A DNA stretch of 63,728 nucleotides, counting the filler, from Collodictyon triciliatum (Eukaryota): assembly GCA_043381765.1 (NCBI GenBank). It is 3 parts of 3 records of this genome, joined end to end, with 100 filler letters (N's around TTAATTAATTAA, not from the genome) between each part and the next. Parts side by side here need not be neighbours in the genome. Positions count along the whole stretch, not along the records: positions 1 to 25,111 come from JBHJMP010000990.1; 2 more parts are not named here. One strand, given 5' to 3'. Shown piece after piece: positions 2,662 through 42,420 of the stretch. The stretch's first letter is position 1, and each line of letters opens with the position of its first letter. The translations under genes and the position numbers were made by a program. The notes under the pieces were generated by a model that was given only the letters and a program-made list of their open reading frames with translations, was not told the DNA's origin and searched no databases.

Positions 2662-2790
2662 TACTACTAGAAGGGGTTTACCAATCTTTCGATTGGTAAA
2701 CCTGGTGGGGTAGTATCCAAGGGCTCACCACTTTTTTCACAAAGATTATGTAGTGGTGAGGGTTGCTAGGAAAGACCCAACAGCCTCTTT
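2662..2790 (-). ncRNA. Putative Fanzor omegaRNA scaffold and element right end
   Basis: Three consecutive stem-loops overlapping and following the Fanzor stop. 2761-2785: GGCUGUUGGG/CCUAGCAACC, two G-U pairs on the minus strand. 2724-2760: CUCACCACU/AGUGGUGAG, 9 bp. 2675-2702: perfect 12 bp GGUUUACCAAUC-GAAA-GAUUGGUAAACC. The position matches known TnpB/Fanzor omegaRNA loci. Confidence 0.65.
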
Positions 2791-4742
2791 TTTTTAAAGA
2801 AAGGTGTATGCATATTTTGAAGGATTAAAAGAACTTTCTTGAGTATATTATTAGCGCTGTTAAAGTCTTTGTCAAGAATACACTTTGTTTACTTTCTGAG
2901 TGATTGCATTCTTTACACATGAGACATCTATACAACCTTTTTTTGTATTTCCTTTCGGTTTCACATATTCCAGTTCTTTTTCGCAGTTACAACACATCTT
3001 GGAGGTTCTAAATTCATCTACACGGACTGTTTCAATACGTTTGGATAGTATCATTCGTAATTCTCTTCCGAATGTTGGCATAAAATGGTTTCATCGGACA
3101 TTTTCTGCTCCAGTCTCCATACGCCAGTACAACATCCTTGCCAAATGTCTTTTTGATTCAGTCCTTGAACAATGCTTCACTTCTTTTTGTATGAACATAC
3201 TGTCTCCATCTCATCTTTCAAAAAGTTACTTGCTCATAAAGTCTGGAAAGTTCTATCTGGTATCTAGATTTCATAGATACATATTTTCGAAATTTTTCAT
3301 AATCAACCGCGCGTGAATTATGTTTACTCAGTTACGTCCCTAAATCGGTTAAAGATACTCTTGATGTCTCAAACTGCTGATTCTCTTCAAAAGTTATGAG
3401 ACCAAAAGAAACAGCATTTAGTAAATCTGTCGCCATGCATACCCGAATAATTGTACTTTTTTTTCTCGCAAGAGTACGTTGTGATTTTCAAGAGATTTGC
3501 TATCATGTCTTCTTTGTTGTGCCGTGTAACGCAATTTCTTACCTGTCTCATCCGCCATGTAAACAAAATTAAACTTGCCTGCGTCCACTCCAGCTATTAT
3601 TTTTTTGTCGCTAATAAAGATAACTGCTCTTCGAAAAGTTCATCTACATAAACATATTCTTGATTTTTTGATTGTATTTGTATTTTGAATTTTGAAATAC
3701 CTTTCTTTTCAAACAATAATGACACCGCCAAGCCGTCTGTTTGTATCATGTATTTAAAATTGTAGTCTCTTTGATGAAAGACCCTCTTCTTCATTTCAAA
3801 GAACTCATCCCATAGTGTCTCTTTGCATCCTGATATATTCTTCAGTAATAATGTTTTTCCGGACAGTACTGATAAATCTATCAAACATGGAGTATCTAGA
3901 GTAATATGACATGGTATATTGGCAGTTCTTATAGAGATTAGTTGACAGTTTGGTTCCAATGTCCTCAAAGAAGGTATTCATGTAAATCGGACATGGTATG
4001 GACTTATTTGTATTGAATTTGACGTCATATTCGATACCATTTACAATATCGCTGGGAATGATATGATGCAAATGCGTTCTAGCTCATTCTTTATATTGTT
4101 CCGGTATGTCGAGTTTCTTGAAGATGACTTTTTTTAACTTTCGTAAGTCTGCCTTTTGAATAGCTTCCATAATATTCTCGTCTCTAGGAACTGTTTGATT
4201 TATAAAGCGCAGTAACCTCTTTACAGAATGTTCCTTAATGTTGTTGTGATAAGCTGTTAACATTTGCTTCGCCAAGTACGGTAATACATGAGACAATCCA
4301 ACCAACGGAAAACGTTCTTCTCGGGACAAAAGGAATCGAAAATCATTGAGATAAAAAGGTTACCATGTCATCTCTCATTTCTGGTTTTTTTAAAACTCTT
4401 GTGGGACCATCTTGTGAAACTATTCCGACTGTCTTTAAAGCGTCAAAAACAACATTTCATCGATTGTTGAGAGTTGTTGTGATTTCAATGTGTAACATCT
4501 TGCAAACATATAAGTGTCAGTAGCTAAATTATGACACAATAAAACCGTATCGTTGATTTTGTCATAGCCATCCCGGATTCTTTACAATCGACTGTAAAGA
4601 TGCTCTCACATTTTTATAGTCTGATTTTACAGACCTTATATTCTCAGACTCAATGCGTTCTCCTTTATTCATCTGAAAGTCTTTGTTTTACTTTTTCCTT
4701 TAGGAAAGTACCGAGTTTTCTATTTAATATAACTTTAGTCAT
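2766..4742 (-). pseudogene. Fanzor1: Fanzor1 (eukaryotic TnpB-like RNA-guided RuvC nuclease), full-length but frameshifted and with premature stops
   Basis: Stitched frames in order: YKNVRASLQSIVKN, KINDTVLLCHNLATDTYMFAR, QMLTAYHNNIKEHSVKRLLRFIN, IEYDVK, HITLDTPCLIDL, YMIQTDGLAVSLLF, RuvC-I IIAGVDAGKFNFVY (D 3583-3585), KLRYTAQQRR, KKTFGKDVVLAYGDWS, RuvC-II VDEFRTSKMCCNC (E 3013-3015), LYRCLMCKEC zinc finger, RuvC-III KDFNSANNIL (D 2865-2867). No introns, unlike host genes. Confidence 0.9.
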
Positions 4743-5214: not shown

Positions 5215-5370
5215 GGATCGAATCCAGGTCAGGGCTCCCGGTAGTTGCAGCTCCTTAGATTAGTAATCATTCCCAACCCTCTTGGGTGCAGTGATGGACC
5301 ATGAATCAAGCTTCCATACCAAGCCAGCATGCACCCTTAAACAACACGCGTCACTGCTTTCAACCAAGTC
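5215..5370. repeat. Dispersed ~160 bp repeat, copy 1 (homologous to 25575-25733)
   Basis: Colinear alignment, e.g. ggatcgaatc(c/t)aggtca..., accctcttgggtgca, catgaatc, acccttaaa. Confidence 0.8.
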
Positions 5371-5505: not shown

Positions 5506-8500
5506 TTACGCCCTGCTTGTGGACAGGGATGTAAACTCGTAGACGGATTCCACAATCTCCCGAATTACAGAGGGCTGTTCCTCGCTGGCTTGGTGCCCTC
5601 CTTCGATGATGCGAACAAAGACTCCTGTCTGCTTCGATAGTGCGTCATCTAAGGCACATGCTTTGCTGTCAAATACCTGTGTTTTATGCGATTGTCATGG
5701 ATAAATTTTCTTCCGATGGACATAGAGCAGAACCACACTGGCAATCAAATAATTGCGTGTAATTGATTAGGAACGGAACCTTTAGGATATCAGCAAGATG
5801 GTTTCCTTGGGCGAATGAATCTTCGGAAGATCGGAGAACTACAAGACCTATACCCAAGTCCCCCAAAAAGGGGGTCGCGTTTTCGCTGTTTTGAAACCCT
5901 GCGATGGGCAGATGATTTCGTTTTTCAATTATACGTCATGCCACTTCAAGAAAAATAAATTGAACAATCCGACTTTCTAGGTAATATACAAAGATATCAT
6001 AGTTCACACCAACCGAAAGAATGAGTTCAAAATGCCCAGACATGTACAGACGATAAAAAAACAAAAGAGGAGAAACTGGAGCATTTTGCATTCCTACTAA
6101 CCCGATAGAAGAAACTTGCGCCCTGAGAGGGTTGTCAAATCGTCATCATTCATATGTAACAGGACGCGTGATTCTACGTTCTTTATAGTGCCGTCCTTAT
6201 ACATATTGACTGGACTGGAAGCAACTCGACTTCTTCTCTGCCTTGTAAGATAGCCTTCAGAGTAGAAAATATGCGAAAAGAACTAGAAAAATCAATTCGT
6301 CAGACAATAAGATGTGAAAGCCAAGATTGAAAAAAAAGAATGGAATGAAAGGTTAGAAATGAAATGTCGTGTTGATGGTAAATATATATTCATTCTTTCA
6401 TTGTAACTCCCAAACCGTCTGGATGCTATCAAATCCCGGATGGCTGGCTGTGGCATTATCGGCAGAGTAGAGGTTTTCAAATACAATTGATATGTGCGGG
6501 TCCACAGATAAAATAGGATTGACCATGATAATCGACCGAATCGGCCGATCCATAAACATGCGGCCTAATTGAACATCGCATTAAGATAAAAGGAGTGAAA
6601 TTACTCTGGTAATTGTAATCACATAAAATAGCAATCTTACGATACTGAACAGCCACACCGGCACCCAACCCGAAAGCCAGGAGACATGTAGGAAGATTTC
6701 GAATAGAAATAAATCCCTATAGGATATAGAATCAGATATACACGTGTTGACAAAGAAATTTTACTCTAGTATCATTTATATTCACCTCTTTTTCTATAGC
6801 TGTAATCAAGCTGTCCAGAACTTCAGCAGCATACGATGTTGAGAAGGTGGAATTGGTGTCAAATTTTGTTCTTGGTTGTCCTATTTGATTGTGTGCTCAC
6901 ATAAGAATTCCGTATCAATCCTTTTTATTTAATGAAACAAGCAGAACCATTGAAAGAAAGACGAATAAGGACGCTGCCTCAGAGCCGTGATACCTGGGTA
7001 GTTGTACATTATAATTCGACAGCCTGGGTTGCGACCAACAACAGGGGAGAAAAGTGGAATAAGAGCCTCAAAATCGTCCAGGAAGTCGTTAAAAATAAGA
7101 AAGTTTACTAAATGATATATTAAAGAATGGTTAGTGGTTGATGACTTCTTCAGTCACCCAAACATGTGTGGGACGATTGACAAAAATATTAGTAGCGATA
7201 TCACTTATAAACCTGATATTTCAATACTGGGGTCGGGATGTTGTAAGATTTTGAATGATATATTGACTTGATTTGATATTCTGCATTGTGCTTTACGACA
7301 ATTCTTCATTATATACGGGTACGTTGCAGACTTTATTCAAAAATAATTAGAAATCAGAATAATACTTTCGCAAATAGAATGATTGGTCCACGCAACGGAA
7401 AAAAAATATGAAAATGAGATGAACTTTGTTGCGCCTAAAGCTATAAGATACCTTGGCTTGCTTATGTTGTGATCGCTCTAGAGGCGACTCTGGGTCGAGA
7501 GGTAAAGGAAAAGGGGAAGGCGTGCGAGATAGCTTAGATATTTCAATATCTGAGGCTGACTTTGACGCCTTGATTTTCATGCGATCTGGGCGTGTCTGTG
7601 ACTAAAAAAAAAAAAAAAGCTACGTAATTACCACAATATTGACATGCATATTTAGAAGGATGAGCATCAGATTATAACTACCAAATATAGTTCCTCGCGA
7701 TCAATGAACTCAGATATTGATTCTTGAGTTTCTCCTAAATCTTTCAATTTCTAGAAATTTTTTCGTTGTATTGCAAACCCATAAAGATTACTAATCCATC
7801 TTTGAGAGAAAAAGGAAAAAAATGCTAATGTTCAAGTAATTGAGAGAGAACTAGTACTAGTAGAACTATTGTATGTATGTATGTATGTATGTATGTATGT
7901 ATGTATGTATGTATGTATGTATGTATGTATGTATGNNNNNNNNNNNNNNNNNNNNNNNNNNNNNNNNNNNNNNNNNNNTTTTCTTTTGTTTGTTTGTTTG
8001 TTTGTTTGTTTGTTTGTTTGTTTGTTTGTTTGTTTGTTTGTTTGTTTGTTTGTTTGTTTGTTAATTTGTTACTTTGACTATAGTTCCTTTCAAAATTGGA
8101 GAAGTAGTCCGCTGAACTGATCTAGATAATTGTGCATACAAACGATCCCGCTGTATGATATTTTTGTTAAAATGTGCATTTTTCCATACAAAGATACATG
8201 ATTAAATAGCTTAATTGCAGACTTGCTGAAAGTAAAATATTAAACTTATGTAGGGAACTTCCTACCTGTTGGTTGACATCAAGAATCTCCGTGGCATCTT
8301 TACTTACAGACGGAGACTAATTTATTGATTTTTATTAACCACTTGTCCATGAGATTATAGATATGATCCACCTGTTTTAGAAAAAAATCCTATGAAAACC
8401 ACCAAAGTCTACTCGTACCCTATTCTGCTGAGCGTCTCGCCTTTCTATGTCTTTTCTTAAGTATATAAAGTAGCATTTTGGACAAACAGTAACCTTCATT

Positions 8501-22633: not shown

Positions 22634-24835
22634 ATGGAGCGGCCAAAGGCACCGAAAGAAGAGACACCAAAGCTTGTGTTCATCTCAGACAGCTACGACC
22701 GCTACAACTTCGTCCAGCGACCCGAGCATGAGAGTGTTGAGATATTGGGACCTTCTGGAACGTCATTGTGTGAGAGTCCAGTGACTACTAAGTACAGAAT
22801 CCCTGCTGTATCCAGCCTTGAGTTGCCTGGTCAAGGAGAGGAATTGGTAGGCATTCAAATACCGGAGCTGAAGCCTTTTTTTGAGTCCCTTCGGAAAAAC
22901 AAGGAAGCAACTTCATTCGATCTTATTATGCGCAGGGACAAGATAGTAAGATTCCTGCTTGAATCTATCATCTCGCCACTCTCTTCTAGACAATCCTTTT
23001 AAGTATTCAGAATATTTGTATTTCATCTTTAGAAAAACGTCAAAGAATCAAATAGTCATTATGTTATTTCCCTCCACAGATTCTGGAATACGAAAACACG
23101 ACAGTGGTGCTTACTCCAGAGAAGGTAGTTGACAAATTGTCATTGTATAGATATTTCGGCAGTAACTCTGCCTTAATGGAGAGCCCGTGTTTCGCTCAGG
23201 TCAAATTTTTTTGGTTAAAGAAGAATGAAAAGGACTCCATAAATCACTTACCATGTGTAGAGTTTTATATCATTATCTAAATAATGTAATATCTTATGCT
23301 TAGATATCATCTGTCACCAAATATGTTCCCCAATCTGAATCAAAAAGTCCTGATAATCATCCTAATCGCCCAAAATCTCCTATTCCAGTTCAAAATTTAT
23401 CATATGCAACTCTGGTTGCTCCAAAGATTGTATCTGACATTCATTTAACAAGCATGGAAGATATTTTTTCCACAGTCGGATTAGAAACCCTTCTCATTCA
23501 TATCATACCCCTGTGGAAAAGAGATATGAAAGAGTTAAATTCGCTTGTAAAACAGCACCCAGAAAATTCTAAATTTCATGAAATTCTGACAAAGGTTGAT
23601 ACGTCAATTTTTTATAAAATCGAATTATTACATCTGTTCTGAAATGGTTTTTGTTAGCTTTTCACATATATTTACGCTCGTCTTGCCATGAGAAATCTCA
23701 ATGCGGTGAAATATTGTAGGTTGTCAATGACCCAAAGAGTATGGTTTTGAAAAAAATGTACATGCACTCAATCGACCGTAACTGGCAATTCTACACGTAA
23801 ATAATCTAAACCAATATATGATAGTGCCCTATTTTTATGGAATTCCTGAAATATTAATTTTCCATGCAGATTTGTTTCACATGTGCTTGTTATAAAATAC
23901 TATTTAAATTTAAAATGGACAGCCAAAAAGGAAGGGAAGGTATAGCTGTTTACTTGGACGAACGTAAAGATAGCATGGAGGAACATGAATCAGGTTTTTT
24001 TTTCCATCCTCTTCTTTTCGTCAGTTGCCGTAAGCTCATGTTTACTGCAACGATTCTAATGAACATTCCTTCCTCTGACTATTTTGAAGCACTTTGAATT
24101 AAAATTAAATCTCGGTTGCTTGTTCTTTGATAGCATCCCATGGTATCTCGAATCCCCTTGTCAAGGCGGTAAGAATTTCATTTAAAAAGAGAGAAATCCT
24201 ACTGAATATCCAAGAAGTTCATATATGTTTATAATTCATTTTTCTTTTCTATCCATTGCCTCAATTAAATGAATGTTTACCATTTTACTTATTCCTGGGT
24301 TGGATGTCCAATCCAGATGTCTCCACCTCCCAGCGCAGACCACAAACGGCCACCAACCAAGCACAATGCAGAGGCCTCCTCCAGTGGTCCCGGAGCGCCA
24401 AAAAGACATCAGACAATTGCCTCTGTCAACAAGCAAACGGAGGCGATTGATAGCGAGCCTCAAAAGAGGTTATCTCAGATACATTCTTCGATAGAAAACG
24501 TAGTCGAGTCATCAAAGAAAGCAAACGGAGGACCTCCTTCGATTTCGGTTGCACAATCTGTTCAATCACCTAAAAAATCGGCCGTTCCAAAAAAAGCTGC
24601 ATCAGAAAAAGTGACAAAGCCTAGTACGCAACCAGAGAAAAGGCCATCAGATACATCGCAGCTGAGGCAGGAGTTCAAAAGTGAATACGAGCATTATTGC
24701 AAATTGCACGAGAGAATTCAAGTGGTAAGGAGCAAGTTTGGGGCTCTAAAAAGAAGCCTGGAATCAGCCTCAGACCAAGCAGACAAAACAAAGCTGGCCC
24801 ACGAAGTGCAATTATCCTACAAGGCGCATTCAGAG
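22634..24835 (+). CDS. Occludin/ELL-domain protein (RNA Pol II elongation factor ELL-like); 3' end lost at contig end
   Basis: Multi-exon; low-complexity S/P/K linker followed by RQEFKSEYEHYCKLHERIQVVRSKFGALKRSL...EVQLSYK, which resembles the Occludin_ELL C-terminal domain. Confidence 0.6.
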
Positions 24836-25014
24836 GTTTGTCATACATACTTTGAGATTATTGACAGAGTAAGAAAAAAAAAGGGAGGGGTTATATATGT
24901 ATTTTTTTTTAAAAAAAATCTTTTTTATTATATACTAATAAATCATCGGTATGAGCGTTTATTTATTTATTTTGTGAAATACACCATGCTGACATCATAA
25001 AAAATTTCCTGTCT

Positions 25015-25574: not shown

Positions 25575-25733
25575 GGATCGAATCTAGGTCAAGGTCTCTG
25601 GTGATTGCATCCCTTTATAGTTGTTACTATTCTCGACCCTCTTGGGTGCATGATGATGAAGCATGAATCCAGGTTCCATATCCTGCTGGCCTGTACCCCT
25701 TAAATGACCCATGTCATTATTTTCAAACAAGGC
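25575..25733. repeat. Dispersed ~160 bp repeat, copy 2 (homologous to 5215-5370)
   Basis: Colinear alignment with copy 1. Confidence 0.8.
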
Positions 25734-27531: not shown

Positions 27532-30500
27532 TTAAATTGATCCCAATTCGTTTTCTATTTCGTAGAAGGAGGGTCTTTTGGTGGGTTCTGCATTCCAACA
27601 ATCCTGGATTAATTTAGTCAATGACGGATGAACATCGGATGGAATATTTGGCCTTATCCCATTGATCACTTCTAATGCTAGCTTGTATGGATCGACACTA
27701 TCGTAGGGTTTTTTTCTTGTGCATACTTCCCACGATAGAATCGAAAAGCTATAAACATCCGCTTTTTCGTCATATCTGAGCCCTTTCAAAACCTTTAGAT
27801 AGATTCAATTATGAATTTCTTGGAGAAGGCTTATCTCAGAAGTAAATTATATATTTTCTTGACATTTTGATATTTACGCGATATTATCTAAAATACTCTA
27901 ATAGATTATCATTATAAACCTCTGGAGCTATCCATGCCTTTGTTCCACATTTTGTCATGGTCTGATTATTTGCCTTTACTCTTGCTAATCCAAAATCTGC
28001 TATTTTAGCAACAATGGGACTGTCTTGAAATATCTATTGAGATTGAGTTTCTCATCATATAGGAGAGGTTGATAATTAATGAATGATGGCTTTGAGTATT
28101 ACACAAGAAGAGAAATTACCAAGACATTGTCGCTTTTCAAGTCTCTATGGAATATGGGTCTCTCACGGGAGTGTAAATATCGCATGGCGCTAGATATATG
28201 CCTTAGAATTGTCTTTTGCTTTTCAAAATTGATTATTACCTGGTTATGAATAAAAAGCTAGTATGAAATAAAATTTTCAAGTTTTTGGATATGAAAGAGT
28301 TTTTTATCATCTGTTTGCAGAATTTTTGATATCAACTAAGAATTGAGTTATTTATAAAGGCTTAGGACTTACAGACTTGTCTTGTAAATATTTTGATAAA
28401 CTTCCAAAAGCTGCATATTCTAAAACCAAGCATAGATTTGGCTGTTCCAAGCACACTCCATGGAAACGAATTATGTTCTCATGGACCAAATCCCTTTTTT
28501 TGCAAAAAAAAATATTATTAAATATGTTTCCGTATGAAGAATGTTTCCTTTTTTTTAAAAAAAAACTTTAAGATATTGCTATTTATTTTGTAATCTTCAA
28601 GTGTATTGGAAATGTATTCAGATCATTGTAGGGTTATTGAATGGATTATTTGTTATGTACTTTATTGTCAGGACTTCAGACATCAAGGAAAAAAGTTGTT
28701 TTTCGGGCATTTTTTGTCTGATGAATTTCTTTACAGCAACTTGTTTTTCTCCAATTGAACCAAGGTAGACTGTACCGTACGATCCAGACCCAAGTTCTTG
28801 GGTACTTACGTTAATGTCTTCGAATTTGATCTGGAATGACTCCTGTAAAATCAGAGAGAGAGAGAGAGTGTGTGTGTGAGTGTGTGTGTGTGGATATATT
28901 TTTGATTAGTAATAGCAAAGTGTAGGAGTGAAATGTATTTCTCGAATCCATTTTGAAATTATTTTTTTTAGGATTTTAGATACTGAAATAAAAAAGAAAC
29001 CTCATTTGATGTATCTGTTTCGGGATCTTGCTTAAAATCAACCATTGAATTTATGTATTGATTCGAATCAGCCGAAAAATATTGGACACGGTCTCGCAAT
29101 ATTTCAGAAGTAATCTTACAATCAATACCATATTAATAAATTATTTTTTGAGAACACCAAGCGTACAAAGAACTTTATCATATGAAATATGAAGAATCAT
29201 TTTTTTGTATCCAGTATATTTATATGAAACAGAAATGAGATTTGGAAGAATACCTCGTAAAGATGCTCAGGTGTATCCAATCCTTTCATTTCATGATGAC
29301 CGATATCTCTAATCAAGATATTTCCCAGAAATTTCAAATCACTACTAATCGCCTAAAATCAAAGTTTTTTTGTTAGGGTTTATCTCATCAATTTTGAATA
29401 TATTAAAACAATAATCACATAAATAAGAAAAAAATAGGGTAGCCTTACATTATAAACAGCCTCTCCGATTACCACTTGGCCTCCTTTAGGATAAGACCCA
29501 ATTCTTGCAGCTGTGTTTACTACAGGCCCATAGTAATCCATTCTCCCAGTCACAGGATCTTCTCGACACAATGGAGATCCGGTATGAATCCCCTTTCATC
29601 AAAATTTTAATTTTTTTTATCAAAACAGAATATAGAATAAGTCTACAGATTTTTATATTATTCTTTATAATTATAAATTCAATCGAAATATATGTTTTTG
29701 TCTTTTTTTTTTAAAAAAAAAGAAAGCCCAAAATTTTTTATTACCATTCGGACTCGAATACCTCTGAAAATCAATCCTTTTGCACTTTTAACGACAGTCG
29801 TTGATGGATGATTAAGAATTTTTGACGGCCAGTCGACTAGTAGCAGCATTTCTTGTGCTTGTAAAGCAAACTTTACAGCATTTAAAATCGAATCAAATGC
29901 AATCATAAAGGCATCTCCTTCTGTTTTAACCTCATAACCCTATTTTTTTTAAAAAAAAATAACGAGTACATGAATTAGTTATAAAAAAGGGTATTTTTAT
30001 AAAGATTTTTTTATGTGTTTTACATCATTATAAATTTGAAGCTATTTGATATTTGAACTACTTTGTTTCTCCGAATAGCATCTCTCATGGTGTCGTTGTG
30101 AAGATTCAATACTTCAATCATATCTTCAGGGAATTTCCCCCAAAGTGAAGTTGAGCTTTGGATGTCTGTAAATATCAAGGCTATGTTTCCTGTAGGTGCC
30201 ACCTGCTTCGCTCTGTTGCCTATTTTTGTACCCATAATGGTTCCAGAGCTAAAAGACATGGATGCCGATTCGTTTTTCTTAAATGCAACGTGACTTGTAA
30301 TTTCACTAAAAGATGGTCTATCTGTTGGGTTGTGAGACCAACATCTCTCTGCCAAATTCCTTAGTTCTGGAAGGTTCTCATATTCTGGTAAGAATGTTGG
30401 TCTTAGGGTTCCCTCCTGAACCCTGTAAATAACCGATTCTGCTAGTTCTCCCTTTTTTTTTTGAAATAAAAAAGTAAAATTGTATTCCTGGGTTTAGCGA

Positions 30501-33500: not shown

Positions 33501-36063
33501 TATTAATTTGAATCACTCTAAGGATGATTTTAAACAAGAAAATGCATTTATATTAACATATAAATCAATCTATGTTTTAATAAATCCATATGCATACTTT
33601 ACCATCCTGCACAAAATTGAAAGGAAGAATAAAAAAAATACATATGCATACTTATTCTATAATTCCATGTATCATCTAAGAGATTTCCGGAGAAATCAGT
33701 TCCTCCAAAAATTAAGATATTGTCATTATCAGTCTGACAGAGGGAATGATAAGCCCTCTTCTTCTAAAAATCCGATTCATATAAATTTATCAATTCAGAT
33801 ATGGAGGCATGAATTTTATATGGTTCAGTATTGTTTTCAATCGGTAGATGATAGTCAGGATGGGTTATTTTTTTGTAAGCATTTACAGGAATGACTCCAC
33901 CGATTTCCGTAGATTGTATATTTAGGGCTGAAAAATCAAGAATCATAACAGCAGAATAAAATTCTTTTTCGTCAGTTCCTGGTATAATCTTTATATTAAA
34001 TATTTTAATATGGAGAAAATAGATAGAGTGCTTATTATATGTACATATACATATATATATTATTTGGACCTTTCCACCCCACATGTACAGATTATGACCA
34101 ATTTGAACAGAACCAAGACCATCTCGATAATATGGTCTTTGAAAATTTGATAGATTCAGATCATAATCTTGTAAGCTCCATAATGATTCATCTATTTTTT
34201 TTTTAAAAATTTTTTTTCGAAAAATCAGTAATCCAAAGAAAATCAATTCATTTTTCAAAGAAAAGGATTTTGTATCAATCTAAACCTAAATCAAAGACCC
34301 AAAGTGAATTTGCTGAATATCTGAATTTGGTCTTTCCTCCAATCACAAAGACTTTATTGGACCAATATGAAATAGATGCACTAGATCTTGGTGGAGGTCC
34401 GAATTTTTCAGACTCAATAAAGAGACATTCCCATTCTTGGGTACCTTAATTTGAATGAATCATAAACACACAATTATTATCATAGTTTGTATTGGAATAT
34501 AGTTTATTTTTCTTTCTTTGATAAAATATATTAGGTTCTTAAAAATCTGTCAAACCTATATCAAAAATCCATAAATCATTGAGTAACAGTTCTTCTAGAT
34601 ATTCAGTAGATCCTCCAAATATAATTAATGCAGAGTCATTTAATTTGGAAAAGGATGTATCTATTCTATGCATAGGCGACAATCTGATTGAAGTATCAGA
34701 CCAGGTTTGAATACCTAATATATTTAATTTTTTGTATTAATTAAGCGTTCCCTGAAGAAAAAATTATACATTTTTAATATTGCATCAACCATAGATACAT
34801 ATAAAGCTTACTCGCATCCCAAGTCCATCCATCATTGCCCACTAAGTTGCTGGCACCAGAACCTCCAATTAAAAACATGGATGCTTTATTTGAAGTATAG
34901 GCAGCACCATATTTTGGTGGTGGAAATGAGATGGGTAGCTTTGGATTCTTTAGACCATAATTAACTCTAAAGTCTACCTGAAAGGTTTCTGTTTTATTTT
35001 TTTTTAAGAAAAAAGATATCAATCTAAAACTCTTTCTTCCAATTGAATTGAATATAGGAGAAAAATAAGAAAAGAGACCAAAATTTAATCTTGCAAAGCA
35101 ATCTATTCTAAAAATAATTTATGTACAAAGAGAAATACACTTTACCTATATTGATAACTATTAAGTCCTGTAGAACCTCTCCTTCTTTTATACCTCCAAA
35201 AATATGCAATTCATTTCCATAAATTCCATGTGAAAACTGTTGTCTTGAAAAATCACATATTCCTCCTTCTTCGTTACAAACCAAGCAATCATTCAATGAT
35301 ATAAGGGAGCTTTTTGATATCAATTCCTGTTCTTTTTCTATTTTTTTTTGAAAAAAAAACATTTTTATGAAACAATCAATTGAAGGACAAAAATCGAAGG
35401 GAGAAAAAAGTCTTTTTTTTTATTATTATTTTCATAAATAATTTGTTTTTACCGTATTCAAAAAAGTATATATATCCGTTTTCTTTGAATCCATTAAAGC
35501 CCCCAAATATGTATGCAGTGTTTTTATGAATTATCAGGCATGAGAAAGCTAATCTGGGCAAGTCTCCTTTCACATTGAGCAATTTCCATTCTCCTTTATC
35601 TGACGTATAAAAATAAAACCGAGTTATTTTCCCTTTCTCTTTTTTTAATGATTACTATTTTTTTCCTTTATTCGATTCAAAGTGTAGCGAGGTTATGCCA
35701 TCTTTTAATGATTACGATTGATTTACTTTGAATCGAATAAAGGAAAAAATGATTACTATCGATTTTTAAATTAATTACCTGGATTATAGTTGTATACGGA
35801 ATTGTCATATATTTCGTTAATCTGGTAATTTCATAAAAGAGTTTACTACGTCTTTCTTCTCATTTACATTTTTTTATTCTTTTTCATTTATCCGATTCAA
35901 AGTGTAGCGAGGTTATTGCATTATTTATTCTTAACTTCGATTTTGTATAATGTATGGAATATATTGCATATTCTCATTTATGATTGGTATCATCATTATT
36001 CCAAGTGATATTGTTTTAGTTATTCTTTGAATATGATAAAGGAAAAAAGTGTTTTGGTTATTG

Positions 36064-36094
<31 letters not shown>

Positions 36095-36215
36095 CATTAT
36101 CATTATCATTATCATTATCATTATCATTATCATTATCATTATCATTATCATTATCATTATCATTATCATTATCATTATCATTATCATTATCATTATCATT
36201 ATCATTATCATTATC

Positions 36216-36248
<33 letters not shown>

Positions 36249-37900
36249 TTAGAATTAAACATGAGTTCTTTAATTATGAATAATATATTTACATCTTTTC
36301 CTCCAAAAATTATAATGTCGTTGTTGTAATTGGCACATGATGACCCAATACGATGGAAAGGGTTTCTTTCTACCCTTTTCCATCGTCTTATATTAGGAAG
36401 GAAAAAATAAACGTAGTCATCTCTTTTTGTTGTCTGGCCTCCTAACATGACACCATATGAACCTCGGTTAAGTAGACAAAAGTGAACTCTGCTAGCTGGT
36501 AAATCTCCTTCGAGTGACTGTTTATTCCATTTGGATTTCACTACATGGACCAAAACATATATTTACTTTCTCTTAATACAAGACAAAGAAAAACATATTT
36601 GAAATTAATCACATGCATTTGAAAAATATCCCCAAATACAAATAGTACCTATGGATTTTGTGTAATAGACTAAGTCCATGTTATGGTGCAGGGCAAGAGA
36701 ATTGGTATCGATCGAATTACTACCTCCAACTAGATACATTATTTCATCTATCCAGATGATTTGTCCAAAAACTATTGGTGGGACATCAAAACTCAACTCC
36801 ATCATTTGAGATTGAGAAACATTTTTAATATCTATACGAATTTATAAGAAATTTTTTAGATTTTAATCCAAAATAAATCATTATGAAATGAAATGGTACT
36901 GATGTGATGCTCAATGATTTGGATATGTGTTATCATTTTTATTATCATTCATTTTTGGGTATAATAAAGGAAAAATACTGTTATTGGTTATATAAAGATT
37001 TTTTGTTTTCAAATTTTCTCTCCGATTCCTTTTTATTTTTTATAGATTCAAACATACTTGTCTTTAAATTTGTTTCTTGGTACGAATCGAAGCAAAAAGT
37101 CTAATTGATATGAGAGGTAAACAGAACTTTACTTTTTCAAAAAAATATACATTTAAATGAAATGGATTTTAAAAACATGTTTCTTCAAAATAAGGCGAAT
37201 ATTTCTCAATCTTTTGCGTTTTAAAAATTAGAATAATGATGAAAGGGGAAAATGGATCGATAATAAAAAAAAGAACCTGATTCATCATTGGCTGGTAAGT
37301 TCCTGTTGGACAAGACACACAATCTCCACGGAAATTGATATATCTCTCACTTTCACAGTAACAACCATCATCATTTGCATTGAATCCTTTGCTACATGCT
37401 TTTTTTTTAAAAAAAAGGAATAAGATGAATTTTAATTTACTTTAAGATATATGAATGAACTTTAGGGTATTTTTTATAATATTTAATTAACATGTGATTT
37501 AAATATTTTTGGAGGGGTAGGATTTCTCAAAATATTCTTACAAAACAGTTTCATTTCAAATCCTTCATCTCCAATGGAATTATAAGGTACATTAAATATC
37601 AGTCGAGAGACTGAAGATGGAACTCTTATCGTGGTATTGATGCTCTGTTTACTTATTTCAATCTGTATGTTTTATGAAATGAAATCCATGAAGTACAAAT
37701 TGCAGTAAAGTTTTGATGAATCATTATATATATATTGAGAAAGTGAAATAAGAGGGATGGTTTTTTTAATAAAAAACGCATAAATTCTACCTTTCTGAAA
37801 TACTCATTGCCAAGAACTATATCTTTGTCACATGAAGATATGGTTTCAAGAATTAATGAAGCATCTCCGGAGACTTTCATCTTTTTGATCTTCGCTCAGG
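27532..37900 (-). CDS. Receptor-like protein: CUB-like/Cys-rich and Kelch-repeat ectodomain, TM helix, TKL kinase, class III nucleotidyl cyclase, second TKL kinase; 5' end probably lost at contig end
   Basis: Kelch GG motifs (IIIFGGK, AYIFGGFNG, LHIFGGI, LYMWGGK); YLTNSNCTWIL CUB-like motif; TM IPVIGGTVGGLLVILMTVFFIY; kinase 1 GSGGFGEV, HRDLKSPN, DFG, WMAPE; cyclase FTDIQSST, YEVKTEGDAF, RMGIHTG, RMDYYGPVVNTAAR; kinase 2 GSGSYG, HRDLKSDN, DFG, WIAPE. Confidence 0.9.
35643..35765. mobile_element. Two opposite-orientation micro-insertions of the GAATCGAATAAAGGAn family, each with its own TSD (intronic)
   Basis: Insert 35658-35700 flanked by ttttaatgattac (35643-35655, 35703-35715). Insert 35725-35749 flanked by tgattacgattgattt / tgattactatcgattt. 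Confidence 0.65.
36066..36245. repeat. (ATTATC)n intronic microsatellite
   Basis: Directly visible. Confidence 0.95.
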
Positions 37901-38473: not shown

Positions 38474-40786
38474 ATGAGCAGCACCTGCCCGCTGGAAGGA
38501 CAGATCCTTGGCGAGCATGACTCCGGGGCACAGTTTGTGCTTGGGCCTGTTCTTGGGCGCGGCTCCTTTGGCGAGGTGCGGTCGGCAGAACGCCTGAGCG
38601 ACGGACTGAGTGTGGCCATCAAACTTCAAGAGATCGTTGACGGTGAAGGGCGGCAAACCTTCTCTCATTTATCGAACGAACACGCGGTCATGTCTGTAAG
38701 TAGCTAGCCTAAGTGATAGGGTCATTTACAGATGTGTCTATTTGGTTATTATTTGGTTATTATTTGGTTATTATTTGGTTATTATTTGGTTATTATTTAG
38801 TTTTTTTTTTTGGTTTCTTTTTAGCAGTTAAGTTGTTATTTAGGTGTTCATTCATTTATCTATTTATCTGTTTATCTGTTTATCTGTTTATCTATTTATC
38901 TATTTATCTATTTATCTATTTAATCACATCATCTATTTATCTATTTATCTATTTATCTATTTATCTATTTATCTATTTATCTATTTATCTATTTATCTAT
39001 TTATCTATTTATCTATTTATCTATTTATCTATTTATCTATTTAATCACATCATCTATCTACCAGGCCCTCACTACCATGCAAGGCTTCCCCAAGGCCTAT
39101 GCTCTCAACACCACACAAAGCCACTTCTTCCTGGTGATGTCGCGGCTGGGGCCAAGTCTGCATGAAGTCTATGAAAAATGTGGCAATCGGTTTACTGTAA
39201 AAACAGTCACGTTGCTTTGTCTTCGATCTTTGGCACGCTTGGAAGCGCTGCACTCGAAAGGATTTGTCCACTGCGACATCAAACCAGAAAATTTTCTCAT
39301 AGGCTCTGGAAATGAAGCAAATAAATTGTTTTTGGTTGACTTTGGTCTCTCTTTTCGCTGGCTTTGTCACAACGGAAAACATATCCGCTACCGCGATGGC
39401 AAGCACGGCATCACAGGGACATTACGCTACTGCTCACTAAATGCTCATGCAGGAGTTGAACTCAGCCGGAGAGATGATCTCGAGTCGCTCCTGTACACGA
39501 TGATATTCCTGGCCAAAGGGCAACTTCCCTGGCAAGGCCAGACCGGCACGAAGGAGGAAAAACGTCTGAAGGTCTTTGAAAAGAAGAAATCCATTCCGTT
39601 GTCTGAGATATGTCGCGACTTACCTTTCCAATTCGTCAAGTGAGTTTTATCATTTCTACAATCATCATCATACTTATCATTATTAATTTTCTATATTTTC
39701 GCTCAACATATGATGTTTATATCGAACAAAACCTTTAAGTTTTAAAAAAACGCACATTTTTTTGGCAGGATTCTGGAATATATTCGTTCCCTGAAGTTTG
39801 ACTCAGCCCCGAACTATGATTACTGCAAAGATTTGATGAACCAGGCCCTTGCCAGTATTCACGCACGAGATGATGACGTTTTTGACTGGCTGACACCGGA
39901 AAGAGGTGTGATGGTTCACTTTATGCGCCCGAAGAGACCAATCGATGGAAATTCAGAGTATCAAGCGCCCTCCAAAAGGGTGAAGACATTCCGCCCAGAA
40001 GAGTTGCAAAAGACGCAATGGATTATCACAGTGACTCGAAATCACGATGGTCTTGTGCAAAAATCAGCCCGAGAGCATTCATACCAACACCTTGTCGAAT
40101 GGCTCAAGAAGAACGAATGGGGCAGCGACTCTGGGCTGTACATCACATCCATCATGCATTCGATGGAAGGAGAAGCCAATTCAATGTGGACGTGCATACT
40201 CTCGTCTAGCGCAACCTATATAGCACAACAAATCAAAAAATGTTCATCTCCGCTATCTGCTGAAGAGTGGGCCAAACGCAAAAGAGAGTCTGGCTATCAA
40301 GTGACATGCATTTCTGGACATGTCCAAAACTCTTGTGTGGTGGTTGTAATTTCCAGGACAAAGGAAGACCCACCTCAACAAGTGATGACTTTTGCAGAAG
40401 TTTTCCCTCGTATATGGATTGAGGCCCACTGGAAACTCGGCTACTACATTACTTCTCTTGGGAACGCTGGTGTCTACTGGTTAATTGTAATGTCCAAGAG
40501 TCCAGAAGTATACACGAGGCAATGGTTTCAAACATCCCACTCATATCCGGCCAAGTCCATCAAAGAAAGATGGGCAACTAGTTTCCGAATTACCTCAATT
40601 GCCTCCAAGGACAAACTATTTGCAGTTGTGATGTCTCAATTCCATGGTCGAGCTACGTCTCAGGGATACAACTGCAGCTACACATGGCCCCATGAATATG
40701 TTGAGGAGTCGCAGGCACAGAACAGATTTGTATCGTCTATAGCGTGGAAAATTGACGACGAGCGCAACTCTAAACAAGCATCATGA
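38474..40786 (+). CDS. Casein kinase 1-family kinase with MUT9-like/PPK-type C-terminal repeat domain, 3 exons, 604 aa
   Basis: Exons 38474-38695, 39065-39639 and 39769-40786 (1815 nt). GRGSFGEV, LGPSL, LHSKGFVHCDIKPENFL, GTLRYCSLNAH, SRRDDLESL, LPWQG. Tail: PSKRVK...TQWI, FPRIWIEAHWKLGYYITSL, WLIVMSK, YPAKSIKERWATSFRITSIAS, FAVVMS. Confidence 0.88.
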
Positions 40787-41299: not shown

Positions 41300-42420
41300 G
41301 CTTTGGTTCGCTAGCCATCGTTTGCATGGACGCTACTTGGTGGCCGAGTGGCGGAGAAGTAGTCAGTAATCAGCAATTGCATCCTGCAGTTTGGCCTGTA
41401 GCCTGGGTCTTGTGCTTGCATGAGAGATACAAGGCGAGGTTTAATTTCTTTCTCAGCTTCTTTCCACATGTTTCTTTTCACAGGGTCTGAGCAATAAAGA
41501 ACGTGCTGGTGGCGAAGGGAGCTGTTGAGGAAAGAGATTTGTATGATGTCATTCAGCCTGTTATCAGGAGTGGGTGTCTGGTTGTTGAGTCTTGCTTTGC
41601 GTGAGTATATGCGCGCTATCCACATAGTCCATAGCAAATGGCCTCAGGTCACTGCCCAGAATGTTTTTGCCTCTGGACGCAGCTGTTGCAGAGGCCCAAA
41701 CATCGCCTGGATAGGACAAACAGCCGCAGCCGTCTTGAGCGTCATTCGAAGAATCTCGCCGGCTGTTTCGCGCAGGTTTTGAGCGAAGGGACATTGCACA
41801 AACGTGTGCTCAATGGATTCATCATTGTTGCTGCAAAGTGTGCATTGTTGCGAGACTTTGCCAGCTTTTGCCGCGCGTGTGCCTATCCATAGCTCCCTAT
41901 TGGTGATATGAAGCATCGGAGAGTGGTGATTTGGAAGGACTTGCGGGGTTCGTGCTTGTCTCCAGCTCGCGGTGAGCGGGGTGTGGGTGATGCCCAGTGT
42001 TTCTCCCCATCGCTGATGTTTCGCTTTTTGATAGGGTGTCGGTGGCGATATTTTGTATCGAAAGAATTTGGAGTAGGCCATAGCCACCGATAACTGAGTA
42101 GACTGCGCACCGTTAGACGAGTGTTCGTTCTTGAGGCGGAAAAAAAATGGCGACGGGATGTCGTATGAGATTGGTCTGCGTGAGCGCCATTTTCCTTTGT
42201 TATTCAGGACGGCTGTGGTTGGCTGTGCATCTTGTGTGCGGAATGTGGTGGAGCCTGGCGATGATGTATGAGCCGTCTTCTTTGAGTGAGATTTCTCTGA
42301 TGGTGGCCGCGTTGCCTTCGTGAACCTGTTTGATGATGCAGAAGCCATTTTGGTTGTCCCAGCATATTTGTCCTGCTGCCAATGGCTCGTTCAGGCTTAC
42401 TGTCATTTCGAAGGGATTAT
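41300..42420 (-). mobile_element. 5'-truncated non-LTR retrotransposon (L1/Tx1-like) ORF2 C-terminal remnant with zf-RVT motif
   Basis: CTLCSNNDESIEHTFVQCPFA...LLWTMWIAR (CxxC-x7-H-x4-C, then a WxxW-x2-R motif); one in-frame TGA at 41644-41646 and a likely frameshift; intronless and more GC-rich; second copy at 26345-27150. Confidence 0.82.

Follow-up and report, generated by a model that had tools for sequence, protein, structure and literature searches.

A decayed Fanzor1 gene copy in the Collodictyon triciliatum genome assembly and its multi-copy family

A stretch of 63,728 nucleotides (nt) from the Collodictyon triciliatum assembly GCA_043381765.1, made up of three joined parts and their filler and called the window below, holds the remnant of a single near-full-length Fanzor1-like reading frame on its minus strand at 4672-2766. 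The frame is broken into pieces that are spread over three reading frames. With a probability of about 0.93, the stretch is a decayed, non-functional Fanzor1 gene copy that belongs to a multi-copy repeat family. Fanzor1 is a eukaryotic, transposon-borne relative of bacterial TnpB. The intact protein binds a guide RNA (omegaRNA) encoded directly behind the stop codon of its gene, and its RuvC site cuts the matching double-stranded DNA.

The first line of evidence is homology. The largest intact piece of the remnant (3977-3600, 126 amino acids (aa)) finds two partial database proteins, P0001 (E 7.9e-35, 59% identity) and P0002 (66% identity). A profile of these two proteins (A2), run against 1.84 billion proteins, matched 1826 cluster representatives with E values of 0.001 or less, and many of the representatives were 600-700 aa long. 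A family hidden Markov model (HMM) was built from the 115 proteins of 550-800 aa among 151 family proteins (P0001-P0151). The model was searched against all 2714 stop-to-stop pieces of at least 15 aa in the six frames of the entire window, with E values of up to 10. Nine of the pieces matched (E 9.6e-36 to 0.0042). All of them lie within 4581-2875 of the minus strand, and they are colinear along HMM positions 63 to 601. Since nine pieces are colinear and none elsewhere among the 2714 was matched, the resemblance is far beyond chance. Both the homology and the colinearity are direct observations. Using tblastn, 150 of the 151 family proteins match the window, each with its best match within 2837-4578. 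One of them, the 137-aa fragment P0021, is 79% identical to the window over 135 aa.

The extent of the remnant was drawn from a frameshift-aware alignment against the closest full-length relative, P0003 (634 aa), together with the family HMM and tblastn. The remnant begins at an ATG-equivalent at 4672 and ends with the stop codon at 2768-2766, and it occurs once in the window. Open reading frames (ORFs) with a start codon measure 56-123 aa in this region. An initial annotation, made from the DNA alone, had proposed a Fanzor1 relic of roughly 650 codons at 2766-4742. Its end was placed correctly, whereas the start lies at 4672 rather than 4742, and arithmetic from the alignment coordinates leaves about 605 codons after removal of an 89-nt segment that is discussed below.

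Every motif that had been listed in the initial annotation was located on the minus strand, in the claimed order and across the three frames. The REC region contributes HNNIKEH..RLLRFIN (4198-4248), which is the same or nearly the same in P0001 and P0002. It is followed by IQTDG (3732-3746), of which the T is invariant and the D and G nearly so in 65 relatives, and by the RuvC-I motif GVDAG (3577-3591), where an A (3582-3580) stands in place of P. The rearranged RuvC-II region consists of YGDWS (3107-3121), with its G at the canonical position of the RuvC-II glutamate, and DEFRTS (3001-3018), which carries the alternative glutamate. The remnant of a C4 zinc finger (2906-2994) runs from CCNC (2994-2983) to CKEC (2917-2906) and is split by a frameshift near 2945. 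RuvC-III is represented by KDFNSANNI (2844-2870).

The family to which these pieces belong was identified through its relatives. In a search of the PDB, the two-protein profile found GtFz1 (1e-20), SpuFz1 (5.9e-17) and PpFz1 (9.7e-15), and P0003 aligned to SpuFz1 over residues 14-607 (E 9.2e-37). A profile of 65 sequences (A5) gave far lower E values for the same three proteins (1e-107 for SpuFz1, 1.5e-107 for PpFz1 and 4.8e-83 for GtFz1). The sole further match of this profile was LaTranC at about 3e-4; Fanzor2 and TnpB chains failed to reach E 0.001. The AlphaFold model of P0003 had a predicted local distance difference test score (pLDDT) of 90.6 and a predicted template modelling score (pTM) of 0.87. 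Its template modelling (TM) score was 0.80-0.85 against SpuFz1, 0.71-0.74 against PpFz1 and 0.64 against GtFz1. The only direct structure match from the window itself is a weak one, in which PpFz1 ranks first among the PDB matches of the DEFRTS piece (E 0.0059). Profile and AlphaFold comparisons had been suggested with the initial annotation, and both favour its identification: profiles of relatives match the solved Fanzor1 structures strongly, window pieces match the family HMM down to 9.6e-36, and the fold predicted for the relative resembles that of SpuFz1. Taken together, the profiles and the model of P0003 support Fanzor1 membership of the relic.

This assignment bears on the suggestion that the remnant derives from a Fanzor2, a bacterial TnpB, a Cas12-like gene or an integrated giant-virus gene instead of a cellular Fanzor1 transposon copy. 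Fanzors are known in large DNA viruses (PMC3627910), and the sole Pfam hint on a window piece is to the general zinc-ribbon domain of Cas12f1-like and TnpB proteins. However, strong profile matches are confined to Fanzor1, and the TM score of the P0003 model drops to 0.24 against mimivirus Fanzor2 and 0.22 against ISDra2 TnpB. A viral origin is further opposed by a scan of viral contigs for relatives, in which none of 40 candidate stretches was confirmed, and by the absence of any match when P0001 was searched against phage records with tblastn. Next to the relic lie host genes with introns and the remnant of a retrotransposon. Such an origin outside cellular Fanzor1 is thus very improbable.

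The Fanzor/TnpB superfamily has been described by Bao and Jurka (2013) with the motif D-X(125,275)-[TS]-[TS]-X-X-[C4 zinc finger] (PMC3627910). In the window, the D of GVDAG, the TS of DEFRTS, K-M and then CCNC...CKEC follow one another in this order; in P0003, D and TS are about 160 residues apart. The terminal RD pair, which is expected 5-50 residues past the zinc finger, reads K-D in the window; R precedes the last catalytic D in 110 of the 115 relatives that underlie the HMM. A frameshift near 2868 falls in the codon before this D, where some of the other copies contain an additional letter. The altered pair is a lesion of a dead copy, and the window copy is accordingly classed as a family relic rather than a functional member.

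The catalytic residues can be followed from a solved structure into the window. In SpuFz1, D383, N385, E541 and D606 coordinate two magnesium ions (PMC10432273). D383, E541 and D606 align with D372, E530 and D581 of P0003, which in turn pair with three codons of the window, for D (3585-3583), E (3015-3013) and D (2867-2865). These residues are conserved in 110-114 of the 115 relatives. The earlier statement that all three catalytic acids remain is therefore upheld by the alignment. A rearranged RuvC-II site has been described for Fanzors (PMC10530073). For SPu-1-1p, a Fanzor1, the G500/E536 pair was reported, with G at the canonical RuvC-II position and an alternative E further downstream (PMC3627910). 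The same Fanzor1-type arrangement is found here: the G of YGDWS is kept in 113 of 115 relatives and the E of DEFRTS in 112 of 115. The residue after the RuvC-I catalytic D is a different matter. The initial annotation had read DAG as a possible lineage feature, which is not borne out, as DPG occurs in 113 of 115 relatives and A after D in one of 115; P0001 also has DPG. Judged from this comparison, DAG is more likely a private change of the dead copy.

The extent of the decay was measured in the alignment to P0003. Residues 1-607 of this protein pair with 4678-2790, with 248 of 591 aligned codons identical and one 95-nt skip. Eight frameshifts are needed, whose places are approximate (near 4576, 4442, 4360, 3945, 3598, 3088, 2945 and 2868). 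In addition, four in-frame stops were found: 4086 (TGA, opposite W), 3334 (TAA), 3220 (TGA) and 3160 (TGA). Because of the eight frameshifts, the four stops and the substitutions at nearly invariant residues, the relic is unable to make protein. The initial claim of a dead, near-full-length copy is thereby confirmed over P0003 residues 1-607.

It could be argued that the locus is intact and live, and that the frameshifts are errors of assembly or sequencing. Five of the eight frameshift places have a homopolymer run of 4-7 bases within 12 nt, so some could indeed be assembly errors, and the 219 N in the window mark it as a scaffolded draft. On the other hand, the places at 4576, 3945 and 2868 lie outside homopolymers, and the four in-frame stops are substitutions rather than insertions or deletions (indels). 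Near-invariant residues are replaced as well (P to A and R to K). Furthermore, two other data sets contain freshwater-metagenome contigs, two in all, that agree letter for letter with the window at 3946-4173 and 4204-4455; within these intervals lie the TGA at 4086 as well as two frameshift places (near 4360 and 4442). A live locus therefore has very little probability, and the remnant is best regarded as a dead copy.

An alternative genetic code in which TGA is read as W was also considered and rejected: only 4086 of the three TGA stops aligns to W, the frameshifts persist, and host ORFs are open in the standard code.

Some results weigh against the conclusion that this is a decayed Fanzor1 copy of a transposon family. 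The last two pieces (2986-2828 and 2888-2769) were unmatched by the family HMM and were positioned by the pairwise alignment to P0003 only. Pfam searches with nine window pieces gave sub-threshold or chance matches only. One of these pieces reached 18.5 bits against PF07282 (OrfB_Zn_ribbon / Cas12f1-like_TNB), for which the gathering cut-off is 26.3; among five relatives, one exceeded this cut-off (P0008, 28.8 bits), two remained under it and two were without a match. Apart from these results, a word-indexed protein search with the RuvC-II piece returned no match, and a PDB search with the RuvC-I piece returned chance matches only. Around the relic, neither terminal inverted repeats above chance nor a target-site duplication was found. 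A transposase was not seen either: Pfam, run on 10 of the 21 upstream ORFs, gave no family.

Evidence for a multi-copy family comes from sequencing runs. A run index reported 17 runs with small shares of the stretch, mostly freshwater metagenomes and including two small runs that are labelled by organism; none of the indexed runs contains most of the stretch. Four runs were aligned onto the stretch, for which 40 of 543 differences and 12 of 80 indels were listed. The first organism-labelled run (X5) gave 358 contig pieces, of which 46, 84, 127 and 101 have identities of 99% or more, 95-99%, 90-95% and below 90%, respectively. The corresponding numbers for the second (X8) are 32, 79, 122 and 100 out of 333. 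Overall, the pieces match the stretch at identities from 85% to above 99%. The contigs cover the region from about 2749 to past 4900, a single place being overlapped by as many as 27 different contigs, whereas 2500-2661 is uncovered in all four runs. Hundreds of contig pieces, up to 27 of them overlapping, indicate a multi-copy family. Judged by these contigs, the family occurs in freshwater metagenomes and in two or more of the labelled organisms. This agrees with the initial proposal, which took the relic as a sign of a Fanzor family in the lineage.

Many of these copies are seen directly, and part of them are free of some of the lesions of the window copy. Among the differences listed, every covering contig of all four runs has another letter at 3334, by which the TAA is gone. 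Among the indels listed, part of the contigs have changes that match the frameshift places near 4576, 3598, 2945 and 2868. P0021 has a W at the position of the TGA at 4086. As other copies are without some of the lesions, less-damaged copies exist. For comparison, Spizellomyces punctatus has 42 Fanzor1 loci, 19 of them full-length, plus 134 "ghost" loci that are devoid of an ORF (PMC10432273), from which it follows that broken copies are the norm.

A separate scan of metagenome contigs yielded one locus from 547 pattern matches. This locus (L001, 2050-2433 of a 2550-nt contig) is a relative of the REC/WED part, 33% identical, which is ended by the edge of the contig.

The 95-nt skip in the P0003 alignment lies after RuvC-I and points to extra DNA at this place. 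The initial annotation had noted an apparent extra segment of about 30 aa here and suggested a lineage feature. The extra DNA is real, but a coding feature is not favoured, as the segment fits an 89-nt GT-AG intron at 3456-3368. The candidate has GT at 3456-3455, AG at 3369-3368 and a branch-like TACTAA motif inside. Excision of the 89 nt joins two frames exactly, and the 11 codons past the AG fill the 9 HMM positions that are left between the flanking pieces. In the window copy, an in-frame stop lies inside the segment; the gene model of P0001 reads into the corresponding segment and then terminates. The contigs of all four runs drop out of the alignment on entering the segment, although their loose ends at 3450-3457 are recognisably similar. 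In these other copies, the segment is more diverged than the flanking coding parts. Introns in Fanzor genes have already been published (PMC10530073; PMC3627910). From this pattern in the DNA, the segment is most likely a phase-0 spliceosomal intron, and the ancestral gene would have had one intron of 89 nt after RuvC-I.

Not all observations agree with an intron. The spliced joint (3457 to 3367) was not seen among the 15 of 25 joints listed, and the candidate donor GTACAA is weaker than the GTGAGT of the sole host intron inspected (39641-39768, GTGAGT..CAG). The ends of the gene models of truncated relatives were tried as an intron marker and dropped as too weak, since only 3 of 31 stop near the segment. 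All three would suit a segment of 89-95 nt that arose as a lineage-specific coding insertion, or as a small insertion after the death of the gene. These readings are opposed by the stop within the segment and by the termination of the P0001 model in it. The exact restoration of the frame between GT and AG, the fit of the 11 codons to the HMM, and the presence of a diverged segment in the other copies of all four runs also speak against an insertion. An insertion of either kind is thus unlikely, and the intron is retained as the preferred explanation of the segment.

The 125 nt past the stop codon fold into hairpins. For 2900-2620, the z-score is -3.5, and none of 200 shuffles folds as well. 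The most conspicuous structure is a hairpin at 2662-2715 (minus strand), about 50-100 nt after the stop codon, whose 25-nt arms (2662-2686 and 2691-2715) are 76% complementary; its core is a perfect stem of 12 bp with a GAAA loop. In SpuFz1, the guide-RNA scaffold is encoded at the 3' end of the gene and reaches past the stop (PMC10432273). For Fanzor1 in general, the guide RNA is expected at or behind the 3' end of the ORF, extending to the right end of the transposon. By analogy, the structured flank at 2640-2765, directly after the stop, may be a remnant of a guide-RNA scaffold. Rfam, run on the whole window, gave no RNA family match, and ARAGORN gave no tRNA.

The window looks eukaryotic, with a G+C content of about 0.36, long microsatellites, 219 N and host genes with introns. 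A gene at 38927-40786 (plus strand) has a protein-kinase domain (apparently casein-kinase-like) followed by DUF7477 (E 1.1e-32), and is split by the intron of about 128 nt at 39641-39768 that was mentioned above. An exon at 30023-30493 (minus strand) runs from the end of a kinase-like region into the first part of an adenylate/guanylate cyclase catalytic domain (E 3.8e-06). The open stretch at 24272-25000 (plus strand) scores 29.9 bits for the Occludin/ELL homology domain, against a Pfam cut-off of 31.2. At 41647-42390 (minus strand), an open stretch of 248 aa carries a zf-RVT domain, the zinc-binding region of reverse transcriptases (E 3.4e-08), and is probably a remnant of a non-LTR (long terminal repeat) retrotransposon. 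When the first 9 kb served as the query, just one more dispersed repeat was found. It is a 157-nt direct repeat at 5215-5368 and 25575-25731 (72.6% identity, E 2.5e-17), which lies upstream of the Fanzor relic and is not a tRNA according to ARAGORN. Microsatellites include an ATT/AGT-rich array at 2225-2395 directly after the 3' flank of the relic, (TGTA)n and (TGTT)n around an N run at 7862-8066, and a long ATC/ATT-type array in a kelch-repeat gene region at about 36020-36300.

The relic is best explained as a decayed Fanzor1 gene that keeps the order of REC, WED, RuvC-I, rearranged RuvC-II, zinc finger and RuvC-III. The three catalytic acids are retained, whereas the ability to make a protein is lost. 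As such it is an ordinary example of a well-described kind of element, and a specialist would not be surprised by it. Knowledge of Fanzor1 dates from 2013, and the literature already covers its RNA-guided activity, its structure, its introns and the occurrence of degraded copies (PMC3627910, PMC10432273, PMC10530073). The supplementary catalogues of these three papers may already list the family of the relic.

The value of the relic is that of a marker. It indicates that a Fanzor1 family with many copies, remote from the enzymes characterised so far (P0003 and SpuFz1 are about 22% identical), is present in the host lineage or was until recently. It is possible, though still a tentative proposal, that the relic marks a lineage of intron-bearing Fanzor1 that is still active and, in at least one freshwater eukaryote, has spread to dozens or hundreds of copies. 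The nearest full-length database protein is only about 42% identical. If so, intact and presumably active paralogs would carry their own guide-RNA scaffold, perhaps in a flank like that at 2640-2765, and their own target-adjacent motif. Such paralogs, if they exist, could widen the pool of compact eukaryotic RNA-guided nucleases.

Among the known systems, SpuFz1 of S. punctatus (PDB 8GKH, 9CEU-9CEZ) has its domain order and length class in common with the relic family, although its identity to P0003 is only about 22% in the structural alignment. Its D383, E541 and D606 match residues that are still encoded in the window, whereas the window copy is dead. The RuvC-I motif reads D-P-N in SpuFz1, D-P-G in the relic family and D-A-G in the window copy. 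Inverted repeats of 30 nt, of the type that accompanies SpuFz1, were not found at the relic. Like the relic family, S. punctatus has many partial Fanzor1 copies (PMC10432273). PpFz1 of Parasitella parasitica (PDB 9CF0-9CF3) shares DEFRTS identically with the window piece. However, both PpFz1 and GtFz1 of Guillardia theta (PDB 9CER-9CET) have larger insertions (aligned chains of 722-726 and 609, respectively) and lower TM scores. The more distant ApmFz2, a Fanzor2 (PDB 9B0L), and ISDra2 TnpB (PDB 8H1J) have the RuvC core and the zinc ribbon in common with the relic family, and all are members of one superfamily, that of RNA-guided transposon nucleases. What sets the relic family apart from these two types is a long REC region at the N terminus, as in Fanzor1.

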